Shown here in pieces: positions 2,943 through 48,440 of a DNA stretch of 64,000 bases; the first letter of the stretch is position 1, and each line of letters begins with the position of its first letter. The notes beneath the pieces were generated by a model that saw only the letters and a list, made by a program, of their open reading frames with translations, was not told the origin of the DNA and made no database searches. The stretch is from NCBI GenBank assembly GCA_016191235.1, contig JACPOZ010000013.1, forward strand, positions 1,400-65,399, read 5' to 3'. The position numbers were made by a program, and so were the translations under genes. The stretch comes from Gammaproteobacteria bacterium. Lineage in GTDB: Bacteria > Pseudomonadota > Gammaproteobacteria > Ga0077554 > Ga007554.

Positions 2943-5639
2943 ATGATGCACGACATTTTTTTCGCGCTTGAACAGGGCGCAACATTATTGACCGCTAACA
3001 GGCGTCTGGCGCGTCATTTGTGCTGTATGTTTGATGCCCGTCAGGAGGCGAAAGGACGCGCGGCATGGCGAAGTGCCGACGTTCTGCCATTGCCCGCCTG
3101 GCTGGGGCGGTGTTGGGATGACATGGCGGAGAGCGCCACGCTGGGAGAGCATCCCGCGCTGCTAAATACCCAGCAGGAACTGACGCTGTGGGAACGGATC
3201 ATCACCGAGTCGCCGCAAGGGCAGGGGCTGTTGCGCGTTTCCGCTACGGCGCAGGACGCGCTGGAGGCATGGGCATTGCTCATGCAATGGAAGGTCATGC
3301 TTGATGGCAGGAATAATATCTTCAATGAGGATGTCCTGGCAGTCCAGCGATGGGCGCAGTCTTTTGAAGAACTCTGCCGTGTGTCTGGATGGATGGAGAA
3401 TGCCCGGTTGCCGGATTTTATCGCGCGGCAGATTCACGCCGGCGCATTGAAAGCGCCACGCCATCTCCTGTTGGCGGGATTTGATGAGTTGACTCCGCAG
3501 CAGCAGGCCCTGTTCGAGGCGTTGCGGGCGGCAGGCAGTGAAGTGAGCGAAGTTCAACTGCCGTCCTTCCCGCAGAGCCGGGCACGGCGCGTTGGATTTG
3601 CCGATTCCGATGCCGAGATCGCCTTCGCGGCACGTTGGTCTCGCCATCTGCTGGAACAGGGGCATGGCGGGGCGATAGGCGTGGTCATCCACGACCTGGG
3701 TACACTACGGGAAAAGGTGGCGCGAATTTTTAATGACGTGCTGTTGCCTGCCTCCATCATGCCCGGCGAGCCAGCGGATGTATCGCTCTACAATATCTCC
3801 TTGGGTACACCCCTGTCCGATCAGCCCCTTATCAATGCCGCCCTGCTGATTATCGAAATGGCGCAGGGAAAGTTGCCGCTGGAAAAGCTGGGGGCCTTGT
3901 TGTGCTCGCCGTTTTTGGCGGGAGGCGAGCAGGAAATGACACGCAGGGGGCTGCTGGATGCGCGGTTGCGCCGCTTTGGTGAGTTGACAGTCAGCGTGGA
4001 TGAGATAAAGCGCCACGCCCTCACTGCGGATGCCTGTCCGCTGCTCGGCGCGCGCCTGCGGCAGTGTATCGAGGTGATGCATACCTTGCCGCGCCATCAG
4101 CTTCCCAGTGCATGGGCGGCAACATTCCCTCGCTTGCTGGTGGCCATGGGCTGGCCGGGTGAACGCCCGCTGGATAGCCACGAATATCAAACGGTGATGG
4201 CCTGGCGTGAGCTACTGGCGGATTATGCGAGGCTGGATGAGGTGGTGGCAAGGCAAAGCCTCAACGAGGCACTGGCGCGTCTGCGGAAGATGGCCGCCGA
4301 CACGCTGTTTCAGCCGCAGGGGATGGATGCCCCAATACAGATCCTGGGCGTGATGGAGGCGGCGGGGATGCACTTTGATCACCTCTGGGTGATGGGCTTG
4401 CACGATGAGGTATGGCCGACGCCGCCGCGTCCCAATCCGTTTCTGCCGCTCTCGCTGCAACGCACGCAAGGCCTGCCGCATGCCTCTGCGCCGCGCGAAC
4501 TGGCATTCGCCCGGCGCATGACGGAAAGGTTGCTCGCCAGCGCTCCGGAAGTGGTGATGAGCTACCCGCAACGCGACGGCGATCGTCACCTGCGCCCCTC
4601 GCCGCTCATCGTCAGCCTGGAAGAAGCCGTGCCAGAGGGGCTGCCAGGCTATATGAGCGCGGCGCAAATACCTTCCTATGCGGCTGTCACGTACCAGGCA
4701 GCGGCTATCGAGAGTATGGGAGATTATCAGGCCCCTTCGTTGCCGGAAGGCTCGCTGGCCTCCGGCGGTACCGGAATTTTCAAGCAACAAGCCGCATGTC
4801 CATTTCGCGCCTTTGCCGAACATCGCCTGGGTGCGCGGCCATTGGCAACCACCCAGATCGGCTTGAATCCCATGGAGCGAGGGCAGCTTTTGCACGCGTC
4901 ATTGGAGCAGGCGTGGCAAAAACTTCACTCTTACGAAAGGCTGTGCAGCGCTTCCGACGAAGCGATAAACGATATCGTCACGCAGGCTGTTACGGCAGCC
5001 ATAGGCGCTATGGCAGAAAAACGGCGGCTTATCTTCACTGAAAAATTCACGGAACTGGAAAAAAACAGACTGGAGAAACTCGTCACCGCCTGGCTGGCGC
5101 TGGAAAAACAGCGTGCGCCTTTTACGGTGTTTGAGCCGGAACAGGAACGTGTGGTGCAGGTCGGCGGGATTAACGTGACCACCCGCATCGACCGCATTGA
5201 CCAACTGCCGGACGGTAGACAGGTCATCGTCGACTATAAGACGGGTGTTTCAGATACAGGCGGCTGGTTCGGTGATCGCCCGGACGAACCCCAGTTGCCT
5301 CTGTATTGCGCCTTTAATGAACAAGAGGTGGCGGCGCTGACGTTTGCGCAAGTCAGAAGCGGTGACATGAAATTCAAAGGCCTGGCGCAATATGACGGAA
5401 TAGCCCCCGGCATAAAGGCTATCGGCAAAATCGAAAGCATATCTTCGTGGCATGGCCTCGTCGAGGAATGGAGGGCGACGCTGCACAACCTGGGCGCAGC
5501 GTTCCGCACCGGCCATGCGCCGGTTGACCCGAAGAATCCGCCTCAGACATGCAAATTTTGCGCGCTTACACCGCTGTGCCGCATTCATGAGCATGATGGG
5601 GTGGGGCTTGAGGGCGACGCGCAAGAAGCTGGAGAATGA
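2943..5639 (+). CDS. PD-(D/E)XK nuclease family DNA repair protein (AddB-like, with Fe-S Cys cluster)
   Basis: 898 aa. The C-terminus has a RecB-type nuclease motif (IDRIDQLPDGRQVIVDYKTG ... QLPLY). It is bracketed by one upstream Cys (QQAACPFRAF) and CKFCALTPLC (C-X2-C-X5-C), as in AddB-type iron-staple nucleases. Confidence 0.7.
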   Translation: MMHDIFFALEQGATLLTANRRLARHLCCMFDARQEAKGRAAWRSADVLPLPAWLGRCWDDMAESATLGEHPALLNTQQELTLWERIITESPQGQGLLRVSATAQDALEAWALLMQWKVMLDGRNNIFNEDVLAVQRWAQSFEELCRVSGWMENARLPDFIARQIHAGALKAPRHLLLAGFDELTPQQQALFEALRAAGSEVSEVQLPSFPQSRARRVGFADSDAEIAFAARWSRHLLEQGHGGAIGVVIHDLGTLREKVARIFNDVLLPASIMPGEPADVSLYNISLGTPLSDQPLINAALLIIEMAQGKLPLEKLGALLCSPFLAGGEQEMTRRGLLDARLRRFGELTVSVDEIKRHALTADACPLLGARLRQCIEVMHTLPRHQLPSAWAATFPRLLVAMGWPGERPLDSHEYQTVMAWRELLADYARLDEVVARQSLNEALARLRKMAADTLFQPQGMDAPIQILGVMEAAGMHFDHLWVMGLHDEVWPTPPRPNPFLPLSLQRTQGLPHASAPRELAFARRMTERLLASAPEVVMSYPQRDGDRHLRPSPLIVSLEEAVPEGLPGYMSAAQIPSYAAVTYQAAAIESMGDYQAPSLPEGSLASGGTGIFKQQAACPFRAFAEHRLGARPLATTQIGLNPMERGQLLHASLEQAWQKLHSYERLCSASDEAINDIVTQAVTAAIGAMAEKRRLIFTEKFTELEKNRLEKLVTAWLALEKQRAPFTVFEPEQERVVQVGGINVTTRIDRIDQLPDGRQVIVDYKTGVSDTGGWFGDRPDEPQLPLYCAFNEQEVAALTFAQVRSGDMKFKGLAQYDGIAPGIKAIGKIESISSWHGLVEEWRATLHNLGAAFRTGHAPVDPKNPPQTCKFCALTPLCRIHEHDGVGLEGDAQEAGE

Positions 5640-5703
5640 AGTGCGGCGAGGGCGTGAAATTGTTAGAATGTTTCAAGTTATGAGTTGAACTGATGGAGTG
5701 TGT

Positions 5704-6960
5704 ATGGCCTACGATAAGATTACCGTCCCCGCTAATGGCGAGCGGATTACCGTCAATGCGGATTTTTCGCTGAATGTCCCGTCTCGCCCGATTATCCCAT
5801 TCATCGAAGGGGATGGCATCGGCGTGGATGTCACGCCAGTCATGTGTACTGTGGTCAATGCGGCGGTAGATAAAGCCTATAACGGTGCCAAATCCATCGC
5901 CTGGATGGAGGTGTATGCCGGGGACAAGGCGACGCAGGTCTATGGCAAGGATGTTTATCTGCCGGAAGAGACCATGCACGCGCTGCGTGAGTATCCCGTC
6001 TCCATCAAGGGGCCGCTGGCGACACCGGTGGGTGGCGGTATCCGCTCCCTGAATGTCGCCTTGCGGCAGGAGCTGGATCTTTATATCTGCCTGCGCCCGG
6101 TGCGTTATTTTACCGGCACCCCCAGCCCCGTGAAGGCGCCGGAGAAGGTGGACATGGTGATCTTCCGCGAAAACTCCGAGGATATCTACGCCGGTATCGA
6201 GTGGGCGGCGGGTACGCCCGAGGTGCAGAGGGTGATCGATTTTCTGCGCAATGAAATGGGCGTGAAAAAGATCCGTTTCCCCGATAGCTCCGCCATCGGC
6301 ATCAAGCCGGTGTCGCGCGAGGGCACCGAGCGTCTGGTGCGCAAGGCGTTACAGTATGCCATCGACAATGGACGTGACTCCGTGACCCTGGTGCATAAGG
6401 GCAATATCATGAAATTTACCGAAGGGGGATTCAAAAGCTGGGGTTATGAGCTGGCCAAGGCTGAATTCGGTGCCCAGGAGATCGGCAGCGGGCCGTGGTG
6501 CCGCATGAAAAACCCCAAGACTGGCGCTGAGATCCTCGTTAAGGACATTATCGCCGACGCCTTCCTCCAGGAGATCCTGTTGCGTCCCGAGGATTTCAGC
6601 GTGATCGCCACGCTCAACCTCAATGGCGATTACATCTCCGATGCGCTGGCCGCGCAGGTGGGCGGTATCGGCATCGCCCCCGGCGCCAATCTGTCCGATT
6701 CCATTGCCATGTTCGAGGCGACGCACGGCACCGCTCCCAAACATGCAGGCAAGAATGATGTCAATCCCAGTTCCGTGATCCTCTCTGCGGAGATGATGCT
6801 GCGACACATGGGCTGGTGTGAGGCGGCGGATCTGATCACCAGGGGCGTTGCAGGCGCCATTGCCAGCCATACCGTTACCCACGACCTGGCGCGATTGATG
6901 CCGGAAGCAACGCAGGTGAGCTGTTCCGGGTTTGGCGAGGCGGTTATTGCTAATATGTAA
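5704..6960 (+). CDS. icd: NADP-dependent isocitrate dehydrogenase
   Basis: [18 protein letters not shown]...[11 protein letters not shown]... is collinear with enterobacterial Icd. GGAG lies 5 nt upstream of the ATG at 5704. The track ORF starts 6 nt earlier at a GTG. Confidence 0.95.
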
Positions 6961-6964
6961 GCTG

Positions 6965-7131
6965 CTAGCAGCCTGTCTGACTTAGGTCGAATCTACTGCG
7001 AAAGCGGGAGAGCGGTCCATTTTTCCGCTATTTTTCGTTACACGTGCCAGCTATTCTCCTCAAAATAGCGGAAAACTGTCCTCGCTCCCCCACTTTCTCG
7101 CTACGACCCCCTAAGTCAGACAGGCTGCTAG
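6965..7131. repeat. 167-bp imperfect palindrome with perfect 22-bp terminal inverted repeats (MITE-like / bidirectional terminator)
   Basis: CTAGCAGCCTGTCTGACTTAGG at 6965..6986 is the exact reverse complement of 7110..7131. The interior also pairs imperfectly (…GCGAAAGCGGGAGAGCGG…TTTTCCGCTATTTT / AAAATAGCGGAAAA…CCTCGCTCCCCCACTTTCTCGC). Confidence 0.8.
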
Positions 7132-7163
7132 GGGCAGGCAGGGAATCTGTTTGCCCCTTGATT

Positions 7164-7379
7164 TTACCTGTTGTCTAGCGCAGCCTGTATGTTCTGCGCA
7201 TGCCTTCCCTTGGGGCCGTCGGTAACCTCGAACTCGACCTTTTGACCTTCGCGCAAGGTCTTGTAGCCGTCCATGGAGATTGCCGAGAAATGGGCAAAGA
7301 TATCTTCGCCGCCGCCCTCTGGGGCGATAAAGCCATACCCCTTGGCATTGCTGAACCATTTGACAGTGCCAGTCGCCAT
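7164..7379 (-). CDS. cspD: cold-shock domain protein, CspD-like
   Basis: [52 protein letters not shown]... contains RNP1/RNP2 motifs. It is divergent from clpS, as cspD is in E. coli. Confidence 0.9.
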
Positions 7380-22362: not shown

Positions 22363-25158
22363 ATGAGTGACAAAGAACTGCGGGAACGCGTCAGGCTGTT
22401 TGGCAATCTGTTGGGCAATATTCTCCATGCCCAGGCCGGAGAACGGGTGTTTGTCGCCGTGGAAACCTTGCGCAAAGGTTATCTTACCCTGCATGGAAAG
22501 GAAAATGTCCGTAAAAGACAGCAGCTTGCCGAATTTATCAGCGAACTGGACCCGGAGACGCTGACGCATGTGGTGCGCGCCTTCAGCACCTATTTCAGTC
22601 TGGTGAATATCGCCGAGGAGGCTTATCAGCATCGTCAGCGCCGCCTTCAGGTGCGCGCGGGTGGGCCGCTGTGGACAGGGTCGTTTGATGCGACGCTGCG
22701 CGAGTTTCACGACCAGGACATCAGCGCGCAGCAGTTGCAGACAGTGCTCGAACGGCTTGCCTATATCCCCGTGATTACTGCGCATCCCACGGAATCGAAG
22801 CGCCGCACCATCATGGAGGCGTTGCGGCGCATCTTTGTTACCAGTGAGCGTCTGGATGACCCGCGCGTCGGTCCCAACGAGCGTGACGAAATCATCGAAT
22901 TGCTGGAGGGCCAGATCCAGATCCTGTGGAAGACCGATGAGGTGCGTATCCATCGGCCTACGGTGCCCGACGAAATCAAAAACGGCATTTACTATTTTCA
23001 GGAATGCCTGTTCCAGGCGGTGCCGATTACTTATCGTTATCTGGAAAAGGCCATCAAAAAGACCTATGGCGCTGACCCATCCAATGGCAGGGCGATTGCC
23101 GCGCCGAGTTTTCTGCGCTTTGGGTCGTGGATCGGCGGTGACCGGGACGGTAATCCCAACGTCACCCCGGAGACCACGGCGCTTGCACTACGCTTTCAGG
23201 CGCGGGCCGTTCTGCTGGAATACATCAGCCGGGTGACACAGCTTAGCTATGTTCTGACGCACTCCGTGCTGTTGTGTCAGCCGTCCCTGGCGTTTCTGGC
23301 CAGCCTGAAACGGGATGATCACTTCCTGGACAAGGCCTTGCGCGATGCGCCTACCCGGTTCGCTAATGAGCCTTACCGGCGCAAGCTGTACGTGATGCGT
23401 TATCGTCTGGAGGCCAACCTCCTGCTGGTCAAAAAGCGTATCGAAAATAAAGAGGTGAATGATCTGGGGATGGGTTACGACTCCGAGGAGGAATTGCTCA
23501 CCGATCTTTATTTGATGCACGACTCTTTGATCAGTCACGGTGATGCCAGTGTCGCCGAAGGCGATCTTAAGGACCTGATACGGTTGGTGGAGACCTTCGG
23601 CTTTTTCCTGATGCATCTGGATGTGCGCCAGGAGTCATCGCGCCATACTGCGGCTGTTGCGGAATTGCTGGCTCAGCAGCCGGAAGCCGTTAATTATTTT
23701 GCGTTGTCCGAAGTGGAACGCATGGCGCTGCTGTCCGCGGTTATCGCTGAAGATCGCCCGCTGACGGCTGATGCGGATGTGTTGAGTCCCGCCACGCTTG
23801 AAACACTGGAGGTGTTCGCGGTAATGGCGCGGATGCGCCGTGAAATCAGCCCTAAGGCCTTCGGCAGCTATGTTATTTCAATGACCCACGCTGCCAGCCA
23901 CATCATGGAGGTGATGCTGCTGTCGCGCCAGGCGGGGCTGGCGGGTTGCAATGATGAAGGGTGGTTCTGCAATATTCATGTCGCGCCCCTGTTTGAAACT
24001 ATCAACGATCTGGCGCATATCGATCAGGTGCTGACGGCGCTACTCGATAATCCCACCTATGCCGCACTGCTCAAGGCGTCGGGCAACAAGCAGGAGGTGA
24101 TGCTGGGATATTCCGATTCCTGCAAGGACGGTGGGATTTTAACTTCTTCATGGTACCTCTACGAGGCACAGAAAAAGATCACCGCCATCACTACCTCGCG
24201 CGATATCGAATGCCGCCTCTTCCACGGGCGCGGCGGCACAGTTGGGCGTGGTGGTGGCCCTACGCACGAGTCCATTCTTTCCCAGCCTGCGGGCACGGTG
24301 TTCGGCCAGATCAAATTCACCGAACAGGGTGAGATGATCTCGTACAAGTACAGCAACACGGAAACGGCGGTCTATGAGCTTTCCATGGGTATCACCGGGC
24401 TGCTAAAAGCCAGCCGCGGGTTGATCCAAACGCCTGCCGCAGAGCAACGTGAGCATCTTGATACCATGGCCCAGTTGTCGCAGGCCGGAGAGGCGGCCTA
24501 CCGGAACTTGACGGACCATACCGCTGGCTTTCTCGACTATTTCTATGAGGCCACGCCCGTCAGCGAAATCGGCTTGCTCAACATCGGTTCCCGCCCGTCA
24601 CACCGTAACAAGGCTGATCGCTCGAAGAATTCAGTGCGCGCGATTGCCTGGGTATTTGGCTGGGGCCAGTCGCGTCACACATTACCGGCATGGTTTGGCA
24701 TCGGCACTGCGCTGGCGAGCTGGCGGAAAAATACGCCGGAGCGCTTTTCCCAGCTCCAGTCCATGTACAAGGAATGGCCGTTTTTCCGTGCCATGTTGAG
24801 CAATACCCAGATGGCGCTGTTCAAGGCGGATATGTCGATCGCACAGGAATATGCAGAGCTGTGCAATGATGCGGATGCGCGGCAGTGTGTCTATAACCTG
24901 ATCCTTGGTGAGTATGAGCAGACGGTTAGCCAGATTCTGGATGTGGCCGGGATAGAGTCACTGGTCGAGGAAAATCCGCTGCTGGCACTCTCCATGCGCC
25001 GCCGCAATCCTTACCTGGATCCGCTTAATCATATCCAGGTGACCCTGCTCAAACGCTACCGCGACACCTCCCTCAGCGATGCGGAACGCGCCGCCTGGCT
25101 GGACCCGTTATTGCGATCCATCAACGCGATTGCCGCAGGAATGCGCAATACGGGGTAA
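22363..25158 (+). CDS. ppc: phosphoenolpyruvate carboxylase
   Basis: About 930 aa with VITAHPTE, …GYSDSCKDGG…, FHGRGGTVGRGGGP and C-terminal …IAAGMRNTG. The track ORF starts 30 nt earlier (22333). MSDKELRERV… is the more typical N-terminus. Confidence 0.95.
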   Translation: MSDKELRERVRLFGNLLGNILHAQAGERVFVAVETLRKGYLTLHGKENVRKRQQLAEFISELDPETLTHVVRAFSTYFSLVNIAEEAYQHRQRRLQVRAGGPLWTGSFDATLREFHDQDISAQQLQTVLERLAYIPVITAHPTESKRRTIMEALRRIFVTSERLDDPRVGPNERDEIIELLEGQIQILWKTDEVRIHRPTVPDEIKNGIYYFQECLFQAVPITYRYLEKAIKKTYGADPSNGRAIAAPSFLRFGSWIGGDRDGNPNVTPETTALALRFQARAVLLEYISRVTQLSYVLTHSVLLCQPSLAFLASLKRDDHFLDKALRDAPTRFANEPYRRKLYVMRYRLEANLLLVKKRIENKEVNDLGMGYDSEEELLTDLYLMHDSLISHGDASVAEGDLKDLIRLVETFGFFLMHLDVRQESSRHTAAVAELLAQQPEAVNYFALSEVERMALLSAVIAEDRPLTADADVLSPATLETLEVFAVMARMRREISPKAFGSYVISMTHAASHIMEVMLLSRQAGLAGCNDEGWFCNIHVAPLFETINDLAHIDQVLTALLDNPTYAALLKASGNKQEVMLGYSDSCKDGGILTSSWYLYEAQKKITAITTSRDIECRLFHGRGGTVGRGGGPTHESILSQPAGTVFGQIKFTEQGEMISYKYSNTETAVYELSMGITGLLKASRGLIQTPAAEQREHLDTMAQLSQAGEAAYRNLTDHTAGFLDYFYEATPVSEIGLLNIGSRPSHRNKADRSKNSVRAIAWVFGWGQSRHTLPAWFGIGTALASWRKNTPERFSQLQSMYKEWPFFRAMLSNTQMALFKADMSIAQEYAELCNDADARQCVYNLILGEYEQTVSQILDVAGIESLVEENPLLALSMRRRNPYLDPLNHIQVTLLKRYRDTSLSDAERAAWLDPLLRSINAIAAGMRNTG

Positions 25159-25191
25159 GGCTGCTGGCTATTTCAAAGCATCAATTGTTAT

Positions 25192-25240
25192 TAGGGTGCA
25201 TCTTACGCACCAATGATTGTGGTGCGTAAGATGCACCCTA
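25192..25240. repeat. REP pair / perfect 20-bp-stem hairpin (GTAGGGTGC family) between convergent ppc and fabI
   Basis: TAGGGTGCATCTTACGCACC (25192..25211) is the exact reverse complement of 25221..25240, with a 9-nt loop. Confidence 0.9.
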
Positions 25241-25325
25241 CAACTTCACTATTCAGGTCAGGGAGCAAGCTTCCCTGACAAATCCTGCGGGGTGGTTTAG
25301 TGCCAGATACCCCCACGGACTCGCC

Positions 25326-26111
25326 CTAAGACAATCCACCCATCGCGGTGGTGTTGAATCCTCCATCGACATAGGTGATCTCTCCCGTGATGCCAGAGGC
25401 CAGATCGGAGCAGAGGAAGGCGGCGGCATTGCCGACTTCGTCAATGGTGACATTGCGTCGCATGGGCGCGTTCTTTTCCACGTGATCCAGTAGTTTTCTG
25501 AAATCCGCGATGCCGGCGGCGGCCAGCGTTTTGATGGGACCAGCGGAGATGGCGTTCACCCGGATGCCGTCAGGACCCAGGGTCTGGGCCATGTAGCGCA
25601 CATTGGCCTCCAGGCTGGCCTTGGCCAGGCCCATGACGTTGTAGTTGGGCATCGTGCGTTCTGCGCCGAGATAGCTGAGGGTGAGCAGCGCGCCGTTGCG
25701 TCCTTCCATCATGTTGCGCCCAGCCTTGGCCAGCGCAGCAAAGCTGTAGGAGCTGATTTCATGGGCAATGCGGAAGCCCTCGCGGGTTACGCTGTCCAGA
25801 TAGGGGCCTTCGAGCTGTTCGCGCGGGGCGTAGGCGACGGAGTGGACAATGATATCCAGGTGGTCCCAGAAATTATCCAGGTGCTGAAATGCGGCTTCGA
25901 TCTGTTCATCACTGCCCACATCGCATGGCATGGTGATCTCTGACCCGCACTGGGCAGCCATGTCCTCGACACGTTCACGGAGCTTCTCGTTCTGGTACGT
26001 GAATGCCAGCTCCGCTCCTTCGCGCTGCATGGCCTTGGCGATACCCCAGGCGATAGAGCGTGTGCTTGCCAATCCAACAATGAGCGCGCGTTTACCTGTT
26101 AAAAATCCCAT
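25326..26111 (-). CDS. fabI: enoyl-[acyl-carrier-protein] reductase (NADH) FabI
   Basis: [28 protein letters not shown]… with SDR-type FabI pattern (…SYLGAER…Y..M…K…). Confidence 0.95.
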
Positions 26112-26339
26112 GTTTCTGCCCTTTTCATAGAATGCCGAGTGACTATCAGGCTATAGTTTACCGTAATGTAAAAAAAGCGTAACTATTCAGCACTTTTTTC
26201 GTAAAAAGTGCAAAAAACACTTGACATGGTTTTTCGTGATTTTCTCCAGCTCCACACGCAGGGGGCCGCTTTGCATTAAAAGCCCCTTCCGGGAACTCAA
26301 GACAGCGAGTGTGCCCTGATTACCCTTGCGATAGTGCAG

Positions 26340-26381
26340 TCAATCGGGGTAACCCAATGCTGTTTCATCACCACCCGCCCA
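26340..26381 (-). pseudogene. 42-bp remnant of a RAYT gene 3' end
   Basis: TCAATCGGGGTAACCCAATGCTGTTTCATCACCACCCGCCCA matches the last 13 codons plus stop of the intact RAYT (26633..26674) with 1 mismatch. Confidence 0.8.
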
Positions 26382-26400
26382 ACGCGCGTAAGGCGTAATC

Positions 26401-26477
26401 GTAGGGTGCAATAGCATAGCGTATTGCACCGTATGCCGCGCCATTCGATGCAATGCCCTTCGGTTATTGCACCCTGC
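26401..26477. repeat. two REP units (GTAGGGTGCAAT… family) in opposite orientation
   Basis: GTAGGGTGCAATAGCATAGCGTATTGCACC is a hairpin. …GATGCAATGCCCTTCGGTTATTGCACCCTGC is the inverted copy, with its GTAG degenerated to GCAG. Confidence 0.8.
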
Positions 26478-26495
26478 CTGATTACATCACGCCCC

Positions 26496-26592
26496 TCAAT
26501 CCCAACTCAACGCCCCCCCACTCTGATACTCAATCACCCGCGTTTCGAAGAAGTTTTTCTCTTTTTTGAGGTCCACCACTTCGCTCATCCAG
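26496..26592 (-). pseudogene. duplicated 3' end of nrdB (last 31 codons + stop)
   Basis: Translates to [31 protein letters not shown], identical to the C-terminus of the intact nrdB (28017..28113). There are 5 nucleotide differences and all are synonymous. Confidence 0.9.
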
Positions 26593-26596
26593 TGCA

Positions 26597-27222
26597 GTAG
26601 GGCGCAATAACCGAAGGGCATTGCGCCGAATGTCAATCGGAGTAACCCAATGCTGTTTCATCACCACCCGCCCAGTCCTTCGGATAAACGCCTTGCTCCA
26701 CCAAATGATGAAACGTTGAATGCGGCCAGTCTGCCACGCGTTTAACCAAGCCATGTTTCATCGGATTGATATGAACATAATCCATGTGCGTACGAAAATC
26801 CGCTTTGTCGCGAATCAGGTGTTCCCAATAGCGGCGTTGCCAGATACCTCGTTCACCACGTCGTGCCCGAACCTCGGAAAGCCGCTCCGTTCGCGGCAAC
26901 GCTTTGGAAAAGTCCATTTTTATCAACCGCCAGCGAGTGGCGAAATCGGCATCGTTTTGTGGCAGTTCGATCACGCAATGCAGATGATCAGGCAACACCA
27001 CCCAGCCATGAATCGTAAAGGGGTGACGTCGCCGCACTGAACGCACGGTGTCGCGCAACAAGTCAACATGCCGTGTCAGTAGATCGTTGCCATGCCGTTG
27101 CAGCAAGTTGACAGTGAAGAAATAGGTGCCACCTGGGTGCCAGGCGCGACGGTAATCAGGCATGGTAGTAGTATCGTGGTAATTCGCATACGGCGCAATG
27201 CCCGTTGGTTATTGCGCCCTAC
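26597..27222 (-). mobile_element. REP - RAYT - REP unit
   Basis: The RAYT gene is flanked by GTAGGGCGCAATAACCGAAGGGCATTGCGCC (26597..26627). Its inverted counterpart GGCGCAATGCCCGTTGGTTATTGCGCCCTAC lies at 27192..27222. Confidence 0.85.
26633..27163 (-). CDS. REP-associated tyrosine transposase (RAYT; IS200/IS605 Y1-like)
   Basis: 176 aa with the HUH motif in VLPDHLHCVI and the catalytic Tyr region MDYVHINPMKHGLV. It is flanked by REPs. Confidence 0.9.
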   Translation of the reverse strand: MPDYRRAWHPGGTYFFTVNLLQRHGNDLLTRHVDLLRDTVRSVRRRHPFTIHGWVVLPDHLHCVIELPQNDADFATRWRLIKMDFSKALPRTERLSEVRARRGERGIWQRRYWEHLIRDKADFRTHMDYVHINPMKHGLVKRVADWPHSTFHHLVEQGVYPKDWAGGDETALGYSD

Positions 27223-27300
27223 GTGCTGGTCATCTGGCAAACCCTTTGACCCAAAAAAAATCGGTATTCAGGCTTGCGGAAAACCATAGGATTTACTCGC

Positions 27301-27918
27301 TCATGGCCCTTTTAGCCCGAGAATTTCCAAGAGAATGGCGGCAATGACTATTGCCGCAATACCAAACACCCACTTCATTAACGGGAGAGCGAAAAACCTC
27401 CAAATGCCATTACGCAAGCGTTTCCACCAAGGGGGCCTTTGTAGAAGGATCTCATCCAAAGCTGTCCTTACGCTTGAAATCCCACGGCGAGAGGCATTTA
27501 TTGCCCCGATCCTCATTGATGAGAGTGCAAGTTCAAAAGCCCGCTCGTGGAACTTGTTGGTGGGAATTGATCCTCCCTTGTAAACGTCCTTGATGTTTTG
27601 CGCCACACTCAAGAACCAATCTTCGGGGAAAGCTTTTGTGATCACAGCCATAATTTGGTCTGCGGCCTTCGGGGTAAGTATGTCTTTTATCGGGGAAATG
27701 GTCGAGACGATCACCTCTCGGGCAATTTTCGCCCTCTCAACGTGACCGCGCCCACAAGCATGATTTATTGCTTCCATCACATCACTAACATGAGGGCAAG
27801 TTGGCGCTGGTCTAATGCCATTACACGCGGTATCCACTGCCTCAAGCGTTACGGAATCAATTTTACGTAGCTCCTCGGCAAGTTTCTTATCGATAAGTTG
27901 AGCTAACTGTGTCTGCAT
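27301..27918 (-). CDS. hypothetical protein with C-terminal transmembrane anchor
   Basis: The ORF is open for 223 codons. The start was chosen at MQTQLAQL (27918) because the upstream extension runs into a REP. The C-terminus has WRFFALPLMKWVFGIAAIVIAAILLEILGL. GC is lower than the neighbours and I recognise no motif. Confidence 0.5.
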   Translation of the reverse strand: MQTQLAQLIDKKLAEELRKIDSVTLEAVDTACNGIRPAPTCPHVSDVMEAINHACGRGHVERAKIAREVIVSTISPIKDILTPKAADQIMAVITKAFPEDWFLSVAQNIKDVYKGGSIPTNKFHERAFELALSSMRIGAINASRRGISSVRTALDEILLQRPPWWKRLRNGIWRFFALPLMKWVFGIAAIVIAAILLEILGLKGP

Positions 27919-27967
27919 GATGGTCTCTTGAGAGTTAATCGGGAAACGCGCGTAAGGCGCGGGATAC

Positions 27968-27998
27968 GGCACAATTCCCTACGGTTATTGCACCCTAC
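27968..27998. repeat. REP unit (GTAGGGTGCAAT family, reverse orientation) just downstream of nrdB
   Basis: GGCACAATTCCCTACGGTTATTGCACCCTAC is the reverse complement of GTAGGGTGCAATAACCGTAGGGAATTGTGCC. Confidence 0.8.
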
Positions 27999-28016
27999 CT
28001 AATTGCATCACGCCCC

Positions 28017-29147
28017 TCAATCCCAACTCAAAGCCCCCCCGCTCTGATACTCAATCACCCGCGTTTCGAAGAAGTTTTTCTCTTTTTTTAGATCCACTAC
28101 TTCGCTCATCCAGGGGAAGGGGTTGGTGGCGCCGGGGTAGAGTTCGGCCAGGCCGATCTGGGCGCAGCGGCGGTTGGCGATGTATTTGAGGTATTCGTTG
28201 AACATCGCGGCGTTGAGGCCGAGCACGCCGCGTGGCATGGTGTCGATGGCGTAGCGGTATTCGAGTTCCACGGCCTCGCGGATCATGTGGGCGATTTCTT
28301 CCTGGAATTCGCGGCTCCACAGGTGCGGGTTTTCGATTTTGATCTGGTTGATGACGTCGATGCCGAAGTTCATGTGCATGCTTTCGTCACGCATGATGTA
28401 TTGGAACTGTTCGGAGGCGCCGATCATTTTGTTGCGGCGGCCGAAGGTGAGCATCTGCACGAAGCCGACATAGAAGAAGATGCCTTCGAAGATTACGTAA
28501 AACGCGATCAGGTCGCGCAGCAGGCGCCGGTCTGTTTCGGGCGTGCCGGTGTGGAAGTTGGGGTCGGCGAGGCTTTGGGTGTAGGGGAGGGACCAGGCGG
28601 CTTTGTTGTGGATCGCGGGTACTTCGCGGTACATGTTGAATACCTCGGCTTCGTCCAGGCCCAGGCTTTCCACCACGTATTGGTAGGCGTGGGTGTGCAG
28701 CGCTTCTTCGAAGGCCTGGCGCAGCAGGTATTGGCGGCATTCGGGGTTGGTGATGTGGCGGTACACGGCCAGCACCAGGTTGTTTGCCACCAGGGAGTCA
28801 GCGGAGGAGAAGAATCCCAGGCTGCGCTTGATGATGAGGCGCTCGTCCTCGGTGAGGCCGGTGGGGCTTTTCCACAGGGCGATGTCGGCGGACATGTTGA
28901 TTTCCTGCGGCATCCAGTGATTGGCGCAGGCGTCGAGGTATTTCTGCCAGGCCCAGGTGTATTTGAACGGCACCAGTTGGTTCAGGTCGGCGCGGCAGTT
29001 GATGATTTTCTTGTCATCCACACGGATGCGCGAGGCGCCCATTTCAAGGTCTTCCAGGCCGATGACGCCGTGCTGGTCTTCCAGCGGCAGGGTGGGCTGC
29101 AGCGGTTTGGGTGGGGTGATGGATAGGGGTTCGTCCCAGTTCAACAT
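28017..29147 (-). CDS. nrdB: class Ia ribonucleotide reductase beta subunit
   Basis: 376 aa with di-iron/tyrosyl radical motifs (…EEALHTHAY…, …IFEGIFFY…, …[10 protein letters not shown]…). Confidence 0.95.
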
Positions 29148-29182
29148 GTTTTTGATCCTCTGTTCGGTTGTGTTTTGTGCTG

Positions 29183-29257
29183 TCGGGTCCGCTGCGCTTG
29201 ACCCGACCTACATTCTTGCATCCCCTCACCCTGGCCCTCTCCCCGGCGGGGAGAGGG
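29183..29257. repeat. two different REP-like hairpins in the nrdA-nrdB spacer
   Basis: TCGGGTCCGCTGCGCTTGACCCGACCTAC belongs to the GGGTC…GACCC family. CCCTCTCCCCGGCGGGGAGAGGG belongs to the CCTCTCCCC…GGGGAGAGG family. Confidence 0.75.
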
Positions 29258-29284
29258 GATGTCTTTGGGGAAGGGCAGACTTGC

Positions 29285-32167
29285 TTACTGGCACGCCTCA
29301 CACTCAGGGTTGTCAATCGCGCACACTTGCGGCAAGGCGCTCACGGCGTTCAGTGCGCCATCGGTGATGGTGGTTTTTTCCGACGCCGTTGCACCCATGC
29401 TACGCAAGTAGTAAGTTGTTTTGAGGCCTTTGATCCAGGCGTGGCGGTACAGTGTGTCGAGTTTTTTGCCGGAGGGCTCGGCCATGTAGAGGTTGAGCGA
29501 TTGGGACTGGTCGATCCATTTCTGGCGGCGGCTGCCGGCATCCACGAGCCAGGACGAGTCAACCTCGAAGGCGGTGGCGTACAGGGTTTTGAGGTCCTGG
29601 GGAATGCGGTCGATGCGCTGCACACTGCCGTCGAAATATTTGAGATCGTTGACCATCACGGAATCCCACAGCTTGCGTGCTTTGAGGTCGCGTACCAGGT
29701 AGGGGTTCACCACGGTGAAGTCACCCGACAGGTTGGATTTCACGTACAGGTTTTGGAAAGTGGGCTCGATGGACTGGCTCACGCCGCAGATGTTGGAGAT
29801 AGTGGCGGTAGGCGCAATCGCCAGGCAATTGGAGTTGCGCATGCCGACGGTTTTTACGCGCTCGCGCAGGCTGTCCCAGTCCAGTGTCGAGGACTCGTCG
29901 CATTCCAGATAGCCGCCGCGCGCTTCGCGCAGCAGTTTGATGGAGTCCAGGGGCAGTATGCCCTTGCTCCACAGCGAGCCCGTATAAGTGGAGTAGCTGC
30001 CGCGTTCCTCGGCGAGGTCGGTGGAACCCTGGATGGCGTAATAGCTGATCGCTTCCATCGACCGGTCGGCAAACTCGACCGCCGCATCCGAGGCATAGGG
30101 GATGCGCAGTTCATGCAGGGCGTCCTGAAAACCCATTATCCCCAGGCCCACCGGGCGATGGCGCAGGTTGGAGTTGCGTGCCTGTGGCACGGAGTAGTAA
30201 TTGATGTCGATGACGTTATCCAGCATGCGCATCGCGGTGCGGATAGTGGCGGCGAGCTTGTTGAGGTCCAATCCAACTTGATTACTTGCTCCTCCATCCT
30301 TGGAGTCGCATGGTGTGACGTGCGCGGCCAGGTTGACGGAGCCGAGGTTGCACACCGCAATCTCCTTGTCGGAGGTGTTGAGGGTGATCTCGGTGCACAG
30401 GTTGGAGCTGTGTACCACGCCGACATGCTGCTGCGGCGAGCGCAGGTTGCATGGATCTTTGAATGTTACCCAGGGATGGCCGGTTTCAAATACCAGGCTC
30501 AACATCTTGCGCCACAGGGTGAGGGCGGGCAGGCGCTTGGTGTTCTTGATCTCGCCGCGCGCGGCCTTTTCCTCGTAGCGGGCGTAGGCCGCTTCGAAGG
30601 CCTGGCCATAGAGGTCGTGCAGGTCGGGAACATCGTTTGGCGAGAACAGTGTCCAGTCGCCATTCTCATGGACGCGCTTCATGAACAGATCCGGCACCCA
30701 GTTGGCGGTATTCATGTCATGGGTGCGGCGGCGCTCATCGCCGGTATTCTTGCGCAGTTCCAGGAATTCCTCGATGTCGAGATGCCAGGTTTCGAGATAG
30801 GCGCACACCGCGCCCTTGCGTTTGCCACCCTGATTGACAGCCACGGCCGTGTCGTTGGCGACCTTGAGGAAGGGCACGACGCCCTGCGACTGGCCGTTGG
30901 TGCCCTTGATGCGGGCGCCCATGGCGCGCACGCGGGTCCAGTCATTGCCCAGGCCACCGGCGTATTTGGAGAGCAGGGCGTTGTCACGGATGGCGGTGAA
31001 GATACCATCCAGATCGTCCGGGATCGAGGTGAGGTAGCAACTGGAGAGCTGCGGGCGCAGCGTGCCGGCGTTGAAAAGCGTGGGCGTCGAACTCATGAAG
31101 TCGAAGCTCGACAGCAACTGATAGAACTCGATGGCGCGCGCCTCGCGGTCGATCTCATTGATCGCCAGACCCATCGCTACACGCATGAAAAACGCCTGTG
31201 GCAGCTCGAAGCGGTGGCCGTTGGAGTGCAGGAAATAGCGGTCGTAAAGGGTTTGCAGGCCCAGGTAGCTGAACAGCATGTCGCGCTCGGGGAGCAGGGC
31301 GCGGCCCAGCTTTTCAAGGCTGAATTCCTTGAGGCGCGGATCGAGCAGTTCCAGTTCGATGCCGCGCTGTACGTAATCAGAAAAATATTGGGGATAGCGC
31401 TCGGCCATTTGCGCAGCGGTGGCGGCTGACGGGGAGCCCGCCACAAAGCTGAGCGCCTCGCGGCGCGAGTCATCGAGCAGCAGACGCGCGGCAACGTAGG
31501 TGTAGTTGGGTTCGTTTTCAATCAGGGTGCGCGCTACCATTACCACGGCGCGGCCTACATCCTGCTCGGAAACGCCGTCGAACAGGTTACGCTGTACATC
31601 GTCGAGGATTTCGTTGGGGGCTACGCCGTCTAGATTGCGGCATGCCTCGGTCACAACCGTGGTGAGGCGCGCAACATCCAGCGGACGCAGACTACCGTCC
31701 GCCATCGTTACATGGATGACCGGAGGGGTGGCCTGTTGTGCGGCGTGGGCGTGCGCACTACGCTCGCGGGCGCGCTCTTCACGGTAAAGCACGTAGGCGC
31801 GCGCGGCCTTGTGTTCACCGGAGCGCATCAGCGCCAGTTCCACCTGATCCTGGATATCCTCGATATGGATGGTGCCGCCGCCCTTCGTGCGCCGGGTCAG
31901 CGAGTCCACCACCTGTGCTGTCAGGGTCTGCACAGTATCGTGAATGCGGCGCGATGCGGCTGCGTTGCCACCTTCCACGGCAAGAAAGGCCTTGGTCAGG
32001 GCGACAGCAATCTTGGAGGCATCGAAGCTGGTGAGCTTGCCGTTGCGGCGAATTACGTGGAATTGGCCAGGAGCGGTGCTGGCCAGCGCCACGCTGGTGC
32101 TATCGCCCATTGACATTCCTTGGGGTGGAATGTGGCCTGTCTGGTTCGCGACGGTATCTGTCTGCAT
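29285..32167 (-). CDS. nrdA: class Ia ribonucleotide reductase alpha subunit
   Basis: 960 aa with an ATP-cone N-terminus, …SNLCTEI… and a C-terminal Cys pair (…CEACQ). Confidence 0.95.
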   Translation of the reverse strand: MQTDTVANQTGHIPPQGMSMGDSTSVALASTAPGQFHVIRRNGKLTSFDASKIAVALTKAFLAVEGGNAAASRRIHDTVQTLTAQVVDSLTRRTKGGGTIHIEDIQDQVELALMRSGEHKAARAYVLYREERARERSAHAHAAQQATPPVIHVTMADGSLRPLDVARLTTVVTEACRNLDGVAPNEILDDVQRNLFDGVSEQDVGRAVVMVARTLIENEPNYTYVAARLLLDDSRREALSFVAGSPSAATAAQMAERYPQYFSDYVQRGIELELLDPRLKEFSLEKLGRALLPERDMLFSYLGLQTLYDRYFLHSNGHRFELPQAFFMRVAMGLAINEIDREARAIEFYQLLSSFDFMSSTPTLFNAGTLRPQLSSCYLTSIPDDLDGIFTAIRDNALLSKYAGGLGNDWTRVRAMGARIKGTNGQSQGVVPFLKVANDTAVAVNQGGKRKGAVCAYLETWHLDIEEFLELRKNTGDERRRTHDMNTANWVPDLFMKRVHENGDWTLFSPNDVPDLHDLYGQAFEAAYARYEEKAARGEIKNTKRLPALTLWRKMLSLVFETGHPWVTFKDPCNLRSPQQHVGVVHSSNLCTEITLNTSDKEIAVCNLGSVNLAAHVTPCDSKDGGASNQVGLDLNKLAATIRTAMRMLDNVIDINYYSVPQARNSNLRHRPVGLGIMGFQDALHELRIPYASDAAVEFADRSMEAISYYAIQGSTDLAEERGSYSTYTGSLWSKGILPLDSIKLLREARGGYLECDESSTLDWDSLRERVKTVGMRNSNCLAIAPTATISNICGVSQSIEPTFQNLYVKSNLSGDFTVVNPYLVRDLKARKLWDSVMVNDLKYFDGSVQRIDRIPQDLKTLYATAFEVDSSWLVDAGSRRQKWIDQSQSLNLYMAEPSGKKLDTLYRHAWIKGLKTTYYLRSMGATASEKTTITDGALNAVSALPQVCAIDNPECEACQ

Positions 32168-32223
32168 ACGCTTTCTCCTTGCGGTTATGGTTGTTCATGG
32201 CTGTTTCATTGCGGCAGAATGAA

Positions 32224-32270
32224 ACACAATCGGTAGTATGCGTTAAACATCTAGGCACAACATAATGTGT
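32224..32270 (-). promoter_or_regulatory. candidate tandem NrdR boxes upstream of nrdA
   Basis: ACACAATCGGTAGTAT (32224..32239) and GCACAACATAATGTGT (32255..32270) match about 12/16 and 13/16 of the acaCwAtATaTwGtgt consensus. Their centres are 31 bp apart. Confidence 0.4.
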
Positions 32271-32351
32271 TTAATGGGGGATTGCAAGGCGTTTTGCGAG
32301 GGTGTTTGTTAAGAGCTTGAAGCGGTGGGAATTTCAGTACTTTTGACCTGA

Positions 32352-48387: not shown

Positions 48388-48440
48388 TGTAGGGTGCGTC
48401 TTACACACCACAATTATTGGTGCGTAGGACGCACCCTACG
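48388..48440. repeat. inverted REP pair (GTAGGGTGCG family), imperfect
   Basis: TGTAGGGTGCGTCTTACACACCA … TGGTGCGTAGGACGCACCCTACG. Confidence 0.85.

Follow-up and report, generated by a model that had tools for sequence, protein, structure and literature searches.

A trimmed tandem copy of the nrdB gene end at the terminus of a REP–RAYT–REP cassette

The gene nrdB encodes the small subunit of class Ia ribonucleotide reductase. In a 64-kb stretch of a gammaproteobacterial assembly (GCA_016191235.1, contig JACPOZ010000013.1; this whole stretch is called the window), the 3' end of nrdB is found twice, and between the two copies lies a gene for a REP-associated tyrosine transposase (RAYT) flanked by repetitive extragenic palindromes (REPs). 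A known case of a doubled gene end is that of e14 and phage 21 in icd of E. coli, where DNA at the 3' end supplies a substitute end of an essential or central gene and the displaced original end (icdC) persists downstream as a short pseudogene differing mostly at synonymous sites (PMC13626634). Both cases have a direct repeat with a gene end on both sides (here 163 nucleotides, 89% identity, period 1521). The e14 element, however, is a prophage of 15 kb that brings a site-specific integrase and has a true empty site, and neither an integrase nor an empty site is found here. The intervening DNA at nrdB consists of the locus's own neighbours and a RAYT cassette, and the second copy is a trimmed duplicate of a whole unit.

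The second system for comparison is enzymatic. TnpArep cuts single-stranded DNA at C^T (the caret marks the cut) beside inverted REPs, even hundreds of bases away, forms a 5'-phosphotyrosine intermediate, and carries out strand transfer; a model of tandem amplification has been proposed (PMC3333891, PMC8266576). The amplification model for REPs and bacterial interspersed mosaic elements (BIMEs) shares with the nrdB locus a homologous enzyme, inverted GTAG REPs, C^T joints, and head-to-tail copies (Ton-Hoang et al. 2012; Corneloup et al. 2021). The published events concern REP or BIME units of tens of bases in vitro, whereas the unit here is 1.5 kb long, one cut would fall within a coding gene, the copies are not identical, and the catalysis is putative.

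Elements of the IS200/IS605 peel-and-paste type also carry a Y1 HUH transposase gene between two subterminal hairpins, as a discrete unit that is found in various contexts without target duplications. RAYT cassettes differ in that their REP ends are inverted and nearly identical, and the left end here shows no conserved target tetranucleotide. In Salmonella and E. coli, tandem duplications that arise spontaneously are reportedly joined at REPs (Shyamala, Schneider and Ames, 1990). Those duplications are like this locus in being tandem and chromosomal with a REP at the joint, but there two REPs recombine, whereas here a cassette end meets a 3-nucleotide match in nrdB. A further model is the homology-facilitated illegitimate recombination of natural transformation, in which a homologous anchor and a joint at a few bases of microhomology add foreign DNA. 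When the illegitimate end lies upstream of the end of the anchor, a duplicated stretch with two alleles side by side results. At nrdB, CTG would be the microhomology and the alleles imply a foreign origin, but the breakpoint of a homologous anchor was not found, there is no evidence of competence or a donor, and the joint falls at the terminus of a transposase cassette and not at a random site. Judged on these comparisons, the locus appears to match a REP/RAYT-linked tandem duplication in layout and joint position but not in the identity of its copies. The most fitting description is a tandem duplication of a gene end that is heteroallelic, partly deleted, and joined where a RAYT cassette terminates.

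Two ends of nrdB

On the minus strand, nrdA and then the body of nrdB precede a 1,521-bp unit that occurs twice, head to tail, and that runs from nrdB codon 346 to the stop codon and on through a REP, an orphan open reading frame (ORF), and the REP–RAYT–REP cassette (coordinates are collected in Table 1). The upstream unit A is complete and provides the functional nrdB end. It contains, in order, tail A, a 15-nucleotide spacer, the degenerate REP5, the motif CGCCTTACGCGCGTT, the orphan ORF, CCAGCAC with REP4, the RAYT gene, REP3, and TGCACTG. Unit B consists of tail B, a spacer, REP2, the extra REP1, the 15-nucleotide leader motif, the last 43 nucleotides of RAYT, and TGCACT, after which come the fabI promoter and fabI. 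Compared with unit A, unit B has lost the orphan ORF and most of RAYT (1,270 bp, at joint J2) and, exactly, the 35-nucleotide 3' REP (at joint J3), and it has gained one REP. The 15-mer AACGCGCGTAAGGCG is found only at 26381 and 27945 in the window, in the left copy beyond its 46-nucleotide extra REP.

The initial annotation had reported that the last 31 codons and the stop of nrdB recur with five synonymous differences, and pairwise alignment and a repeat search both bear this out. Tails A and B differ at 5 of 97 nucleotides with no insertion or deletion. The codon pairs (tail B/tail A) are GTG/GTA, GAC/GAT, CTC/CTA, AGT/AGC, and GCG/GCT, all of them synonymous changes at third positions. Re-alignment uncovered no replacement or frameshift that had been missed, and Nei–Gojobori counting gives five synonymous and no replacement differences over 16.5 synonymous and 76.5 nonsynonymous sites. 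With its non-coding part the direct repeat spans 26430-26592 and 27951-28113. In the non-coding part 13 of 66 bases differ (about 20%); the coding part differs at 5% of its bases and at 0% of its replacement sites.

Five random substitutions would all be synonymous with a probability of 2e-4 to 9e-4, varying with transition bias. If the remnant alone had decayed freely while tail A remained constrained, each difference would be synonymous with a probability of 0.30-0.39 and all five with P=0.0025-0.009.

The two tails were compared with functional alleles of close relatives, identified below, at eight variable synonymous sites. The functional allele A reads GTA GAT CTA TTC GAA AGC GGG GCT and the remnant allele B reads GTG GAC CTC TTC GAA AGT GGG GCG. 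The relative L081 has GTG GAC CTC TTT GAG AGC GGA GCG, and L084 has GTA GAT CTC TTC GAA AGT GGG GCG; at a ninth site L084 alone has a replacement, AAT instead of AGT. Outgroups, at the comparable codons only, have GAC, GAG, GGG, and GCG. Tail B shows no private substitution, and every one of its states is found in at least one functional allele. Tail A carries four derived states, and tail B retains the ancestral ones. Tail B branched before the split of A and L084; neutral decay since then predicts 3.4-15 changes per 97 nucleotides, and at most one is seen. The peptide encoded by B, WMSEVVDL...QSGGALSWD, is confined to the clade with 99% identical NrdB proteins. The ends were also compared for closeness to relatives, as the initial annotation had suggested. 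Against L081, tail B shows 4 synonymous differences and tail A 7, where 2.9 are expected from the rate in the gene body, and it is tail A that shares GTA and GAT with L084.

Because the differences are five synonymous and no replacement, tail B has no private change, and the changes predicted from decay are not seen, we conclude that tail B was probably part of a working nrdB in a very close lineage until recently. The proposal of two functional alleles thus gains support, and it is partly established that the two ends are different alleles, both under purifying selection until recently. Two different alleles in turn mean that a partner from another lineage or a later allelic replacement is needed. 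Either copy, A or B, may be the resident one.

There is no third nrdB end in the window, including the region beyond the RAYT remnant, where nested insertions would predict an older one. No comparable remnant occurs at 88 other nrdB loci; the only match there is a true tandem paralogue in L028, a distant relative with two full tandem nrdB paralogues (4701-7260) that are unrelated to the remnant. Also unrelated to it is P0001, from a TARA contig (L083, 2435-4261), a 608-amino-acid product with two Ribonuc_red_sm matches. Exact-product look-ups for nrdB, RAYT, and the 46-amino-acid remnant ORF returned no match, and no Rfam family, promoter, or terminator signal that would explain the remnant was found.

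The RAYT cassette and the three joints

The 176-amino-acid product encoded between the repeats matches the NCBIfam REP_Tyr_transpos equivalog with 203 bits (cut-off 80). It aligns to E. coli TnpArep (4er8) with a phmmer E-value of 1.8e-49, including the HLH (HUH) motif and the position equivalent to Tyr115, and scores 22.1 against Pfam Y1_Tnp, where the threshold is 23. By these matches the predicted protein is a bona fide RAYT. Its gene lies between GTAG-tagged REPs in inverted orientation, and REP4 (read 27222..27187) and REP3 are 88% complementary. Their hairpins have folding energies of -10 to -12.6 kcal/mol (z about -2.4 to -3); REP3, REP4, and REP1 fold well, and REP5 and REP2 are degraded. 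The window holds five REPs of the GTAG family, a count that covers this stretch only, all of them at the nrdB–RAYT locus, and its RAYT genes are the intact one and the 43-nucleotide remnant. Read-through from the RAYT gene into the nrdB remnant was ruled out, as the frames are offset by one base.

The cassette is a discrete unit of 640 bp, from CCAGCAC-GTAGGG... to ...CCCTAC-TGCACTG. It is found with the same limits in L087 (96% identity), L090 (97%), and L091/L092 (88%), and its flanks are unrelated in every context; the L090 copy adjoins a RelA/SpoT-like gene. L091/L092 has an additional RAYT 3' part ending ...CCCTAC-CGCACTG. The dS (synonymous divergence) of the window's RAYT against L087 is 0.12, about one third of the 0.41 for the adjacent nrdB. 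The identity of the cassette across unrelated contexts and the low dS of RAYT suggest movement or exchange. RAYTs are regarded as single-copy genes that are inherited vertically (PMC5581495), and the apparent mobility of this cassette stands in contrast to that view.

The boundary of homology between the two nrdB ends is the terminus of the RAYT cassette, because the last base of the cassette directly precedes the GATGAGC of tail B. The initial annotation had placed this boundary exactly at the GTAG of a REP (26597). The coincidence with a REP/RAYT landmark holds, and the position needs correction, as homology ends at 26592/26593, 4 nucleotides ahead of that GTAG. In L091 and L087, too, partial copies abut cassette ends. 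In L091 a second RAYT paralogue, truncated at its 5' end, directly adjoins the cassette end, and 320 bp upstream there is an additional copy of the left end.

The nested RAYT debris of L091 (758-2465; the same in L092) includes this additional cassette left end with its leader and a main RAYT with an in-frame insertion (193 amino acids). The 3' end of that main RAYT is joined to the 5'-truncated paralogue (about 55% identical), and beyond this comes a further RAYT 3' part with its REP. Downstream of the cassette in L087 (8040-8490), the start of a ParA-like gene is interrupted by a REP and an inverted RAYT 3' fragment.

The locus has three novel joints. At J1 the cassette end runs into tail B as ...CCCTAC TGCACTG/GATGAGC... 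(the slash marks the joint), and the 28-mer across it is GCGCCCTACTGCACTGGATGAGCGAAGT. A graph-walk misassembly was ruled out as the origin of J1, where only 3 nucleotides are common. The downstream parent shows C^T at all three joints: CCCC^TGGATG in nrdB at J1, GGAC^TGGGCGG in RAYT at J2, and CCTAC^TGCACT in the cassette flank at J3. At J1 both parents have it. The nrdB site of J1 is carried in CCCCTGGATGAGC and the RAYT-internal site in GGACTGGGCGG. The presence of C^T at all three joints would fit joints made by a RAYT.

The RAYT 3' remnant, taken in the initial annotation as a 42-bp trace of a further event, does point to further events and is 43 nucleotides long. Between it and the matching end of the intact gene (26632..26674) 1 of 43 nucleotides differs, a replacement (CCC, proline, against TCC, serine). 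The B side of the locus has been seen independently, in the Logan contig L088, which is 100% identical over 26381..25150 and stops at the repeat boundary.

On the minus strand the pentamer GATGA is found on both sides of the cassette (27230-27234 and 26585-26589), resembling a 5-bp target duplication and possibly there by chance; nothing comparable surrounds the cassette in L087, L090, or L091. The sequence TGCACTAYCG follows the RAYT remnant (26329-26338) and is also found at the site of a hybrid hairpin in L081.

Relatives and the origin of the arrangement

A scan of GTDB representatives gave only relatives with at most 84% amino acid identity, too distant for DNA comparison, and the informative contigs came from a protein search (NrdB 99% identical). 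Four of them, L081, L082, L089, and L084, have 92-94% nucleotide identity overall and carry nrdB, REP, and orphan ORF contiguously, as in unit A. In L081, L082, and L089 (GCA_022842345.1 and two metagenomes; 92% over 32346..27300), the orphan ORF is followed by a hybrid REP and unrelated genes, with neither RAYT nor remnant. L084, a Logan contig (SRR22105543; 93.6% overall, 98% in nrdB), continues after the orphan ORF with CCAGCAC-REP4 and ends there. L087 (GCA_033717875.1) is syntenic upstream (metE–lysR–nrdA), with nrdB at about 90% nucleotide identity, and after nrdB it has 260 nucleotides, the cassette, and more RAYT fragments nearby. The nrdB-end remnant is absent from all three relatives whose contigs extend far enough. 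A scan of metagenome contigs with the shared tail core yielded one contig, of the L081 type.

The initial annotation had the 1.5 kb between the two ends entering by insertion or recombination at the nrdB 3' end, and the relatives do not support this. None of L081, L082, L089, and L084 has an empty site in which nrdB is followed by the fabI flank, and all have the REP and the orphan ORF directly after nrdB. Measured against L081, dS is 0.15-0.20 for the orphan ORF, 0.20 for the nrdB body, and 0.25 for nrdA; against L084 it is 0.10 for the orphan ORF and 0.07 for the nrdB body. Since the orphan ORF and nrdA match the nrdB body in dS, REP5 and the orphan ORF have long adjoined nrdB, share its history, and did not arrive as an insert.

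At the position of the window's cassette, L081 (6874-6925; also L082 and L089) has a single hybrid hairpin, whose two ends carry GTAG and CTAC, and CCC TGCACTACCG comes next. The hairpin resembles what would remain if a RAYT gene had been lost between its two REPs. A small ORF and a ParE-family toxin gene lie between nrdA and nrdB in L087 (5506-5987). The orphan ORF itself matches no Pfam, NCBIfam, or PADLOC family. Its copies in L081 (6225-6842) and L084 (1437-2153) show a ratio of replacement to synonymous divergence (dN/dS) of roughly 0.3-0.5 in the 99% clade, and in L084 about the last third, from around residue 160, is swapped for unrelated sequence.

The explanation we prefer, held with about as much doubt as confidence, is a duplication in head-to-tail order whose joint at the cassette end was made by RAYT strand transfer at C^T or by microhomology joining, and which involved or was followed by exchange with a related lineage. 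We infer the catalyst and the order of events as follows. The RAYT, a Y1 HUH enzyme, or else a REP-provoked break repaired through the 3-nucleotide microhomology, would have made J1. The cassette end of one copy of the locus would thereby have been joined to C^TGGATG in the nrdB of another copy, giving the head-to-tail layout and keeping nrdB intact. Two further joints would have trimmed the downstream copy, one removing the 1,270 bp and the other exactly the 3' REP, and one REP would have been gained. The allelic difference could have arisen in two ways. A resident chromosome may have met incoming DNA from a related lineage and been joined to it through one homologous anchor and one joint that was illegitimate or made by the RAYT. 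Or the duplication may have arisen in place, and the upstream copy may later have been replaced by homologous recombination with a relative.

Several points weigh against this explanation. C^T is a common dinucleotide and each joint has 1-3 nucleotides of microhomology, so plain illegitimate recombination fits equally; the rough chance estimate for C^T at all three joints, about 0.006, was made post hoc. The five contexts share TGCACTG and not just TGCAC, and the RAYT cut may therefore fall after CTG and not at C^T. A plain in-place duplication predicts identical copies, so a second ingredient is required. No recombination breakpoint was found in nrdA–nrdB–orphan ORF by sliding-window identity or per-segment dS. 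The allelic argument rests on eight variable sites, and AGC/AGT is homoplasious. The contig may also come from a metagenome bin.

A more far-reaching claim seems doubtful to us, namely that the RAYT acted in vivo on a non-REP C^T in an essential gene, moving or duplicating as one unit 1.5 kb of adjoining host DNA made up of the gene end, the neighbouring gene, and the RAYT's own cassette, and that the cassette is autonomous and spreads between lineages. If true, this would indicate from a natural case that 'domesticated' RAYTs continue to rearrange and transduce the genes beside them and leave the target gene intact.

Foremost among the rival accounts is a chimeric contig, in which an assembler would have crossed between co-occurring strains inside the 640-bp cassette. 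Tails A and B would then come from different strains, with the duplication joint real in at least one of them. The cassette is a repeat longer than short reads, all close relatives come from metagenomes, and no other record has the exact nrdB product, while the fabI side is 100% identical in Logan run SRR12113392. The account is nonetheless unlikely. With only 3 shared nucleotides, a graph walk cannot produce J1, which means that some actual genome must contain a remnant beside the cassette. A complete nrdB is still required there, and its simplest place would be upstream, as in this layout; a second cassette copy is not seen in the 64 kb.

A true insertion that brought its own gene end is distinctly improbable. 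It would have 1.5 kb from another lineage (tail A, REP, orphan ORF, and cassette), for example as a single-strand circle released by cuts at C^T in the donor nrdB and at the cassette end, pasted at the same C^T of the resident nrdB and displacing tail B. The structure is exactly a direct repeat, 1358 bp, and a direct repeat, with a joint at the cassette end, and the cassette is evidently mobile between contexts. Tail B suits the nrdB body slightly better than tail A does, judging by their distances to L081, and e14 in icd is a known analogue (PMC13626634). Against this, all close relatives have the orphan ORF and REP5 as ancestral neighbours of nrdB, with the dS of the nrdB body. Unit B holds the orphan-leader motif and a RAYT tail, so that the 'resident' locus already had such content. 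Only the RAYT and the 205-amino-acid orphan ORF lie between the repeats, without an integrase, and no relative has an empty site. To our knowledge, there is no precedent for RAYT-mediated transfer of 1.5 kb between genomes.

An in-place duplication within one lineage, with no outside DNA and a remnant whose all-synonymous pattern arose by chance during decay, would be the simplest event, and the RAYT tail copies are indeed nearly identical. It is highly unlikely all the same, given the low P value for five of five synonymous differences under free decay of the remnant, the high divergence of the non-coding part against none at replacement sites, and the distribution of changes, which leaves the remnant without a private change and puts four derived states, two of them shared with L084, in the functional copy. 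Least credible of all is a remnant under selection as a translated free R2 C-terminal peptide binding NrdA, for example from the 46-codon ORF 26496..26636: replacement changes are nil, a TTG-start ORF spans the remnant, and R2 C-terminal peptides are known competitors for R1 binding, but a search for promoter-like sites found none, the ORF and the RAYT gene are in different frames, no called gene on record corresponds to the ORF, the 88 nrdB loci offer no second case, and recency accounts for the pattern without selection.

The locus bears on how RAYTs, which are seen as domesticated transposases, act in cells; this activity has so far been inferred mainly from the copy numbers of REPs and REP doublets (REPINs) and from in-vitro cleavage. 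Its three joints coincide with landmarks of the cassette, and one falls within an essential gene that has kept its reading frame; the cassette itself is found in five contexts. Should reads bear out the structure, the locus would be a natural record of substrate and product that could be used to define RAYT cut sites in vivo. Avoidance of replacement changes by a short pseudogene can point to recent recombination between lineages and not to selection, which should be useful for annotating gene-end remnants in metagenome-assembled genomes. No broader physiological implication follows, as nrdB is intact at this locus.

Features of the locus

Table 1. Positions of the features at the nrdB–RAYT locus, in window coordinates
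Feature	Position	Strand	Basis
nrdB, complete class Ia ribonucleotide reductase small subunit, 376 amino acids	28017..29147	-	Pfam Ribonuc_red_sm 305 bits; 99% amino acid identity to P0002-P0004
Tail A, working last 31 codons and stop of nrdB	28017..28113	-	Pairwise alignment; codons GTA and GAT common with L084, CTA and GCT private
Unit A spacer, degenerate REP5 (27963..27998), and orphan-leader motif CGCCTTACGCGCGTT (27945..27959)	27945..28016	-	Same layout in L081, L082, L084; hairpin weak
Orphan ORF, 205 amino acids, C-terminal hydrophobic helix, conserved nrdB neighbour in the clade	27301..27918	-	Homologues directly after nrdB in L081, L082, L084, L089
REP–RAYT–REP cassette, 640 bp: CCAGCAC and REP4 (27187..27222), RAYT (26633..27163, 176 amino acids), REP3 (26597..26632), TGCACTG (26590..26596)	26590..27229	-	Family profile and recurrence elsewhere
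Joint J1, cassette end ...TGCACTG into GATGAGC... of tail B	26590..26592	-	CTG common to cassette end and nrdB (CCCCTG/GATGAGC)
Tail B, remnant copy, nrdB codons 346-376 and stop, without nrdB body upstream	26496..26592	-	Alignment, Nei–Gojobori
Unit B spacer, REP2 (26442..26477, minus), and extra REP1 (26401..26437, plus), an inverted REP pair	26396..26495	.	Repeat search, folding
Unit B orphan-leader motif, directly abutting the RAYT tail (joint J2)	26381..26395	-	1,270 bp absent relative to unit A
RAYT 3' remnant (43 nucleotides, 26339..26381), then cassette flank TGCACT (26333..26338); 3' REP exactly absent (joint J3)	26333..26381	-	Repeat search
fabI, unique flank downstream of the duplicated units	25326..26111	-	Pfam adh_short_C2 306 bits

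The G+C content is about 0.50 over the REP, RAYT, and orphan ORF stretch (26100-28100) and about 0.60 in nrdA, nrdB, and fabI. The window also contains a second, unrelated family of palindromic repeats, TAGGGTGCATCTTACGCACCA, a perfect inverted pair with a 7-nucleotide spacer, at 25192-25240 in the ppc/fabI spacer and at 48390-48438. In relatives, the TAGGGTGCATCTTACGCACCA family, of which no copy is expected by chance, is found between nrdA and nrdB (L081, 4911-4970).

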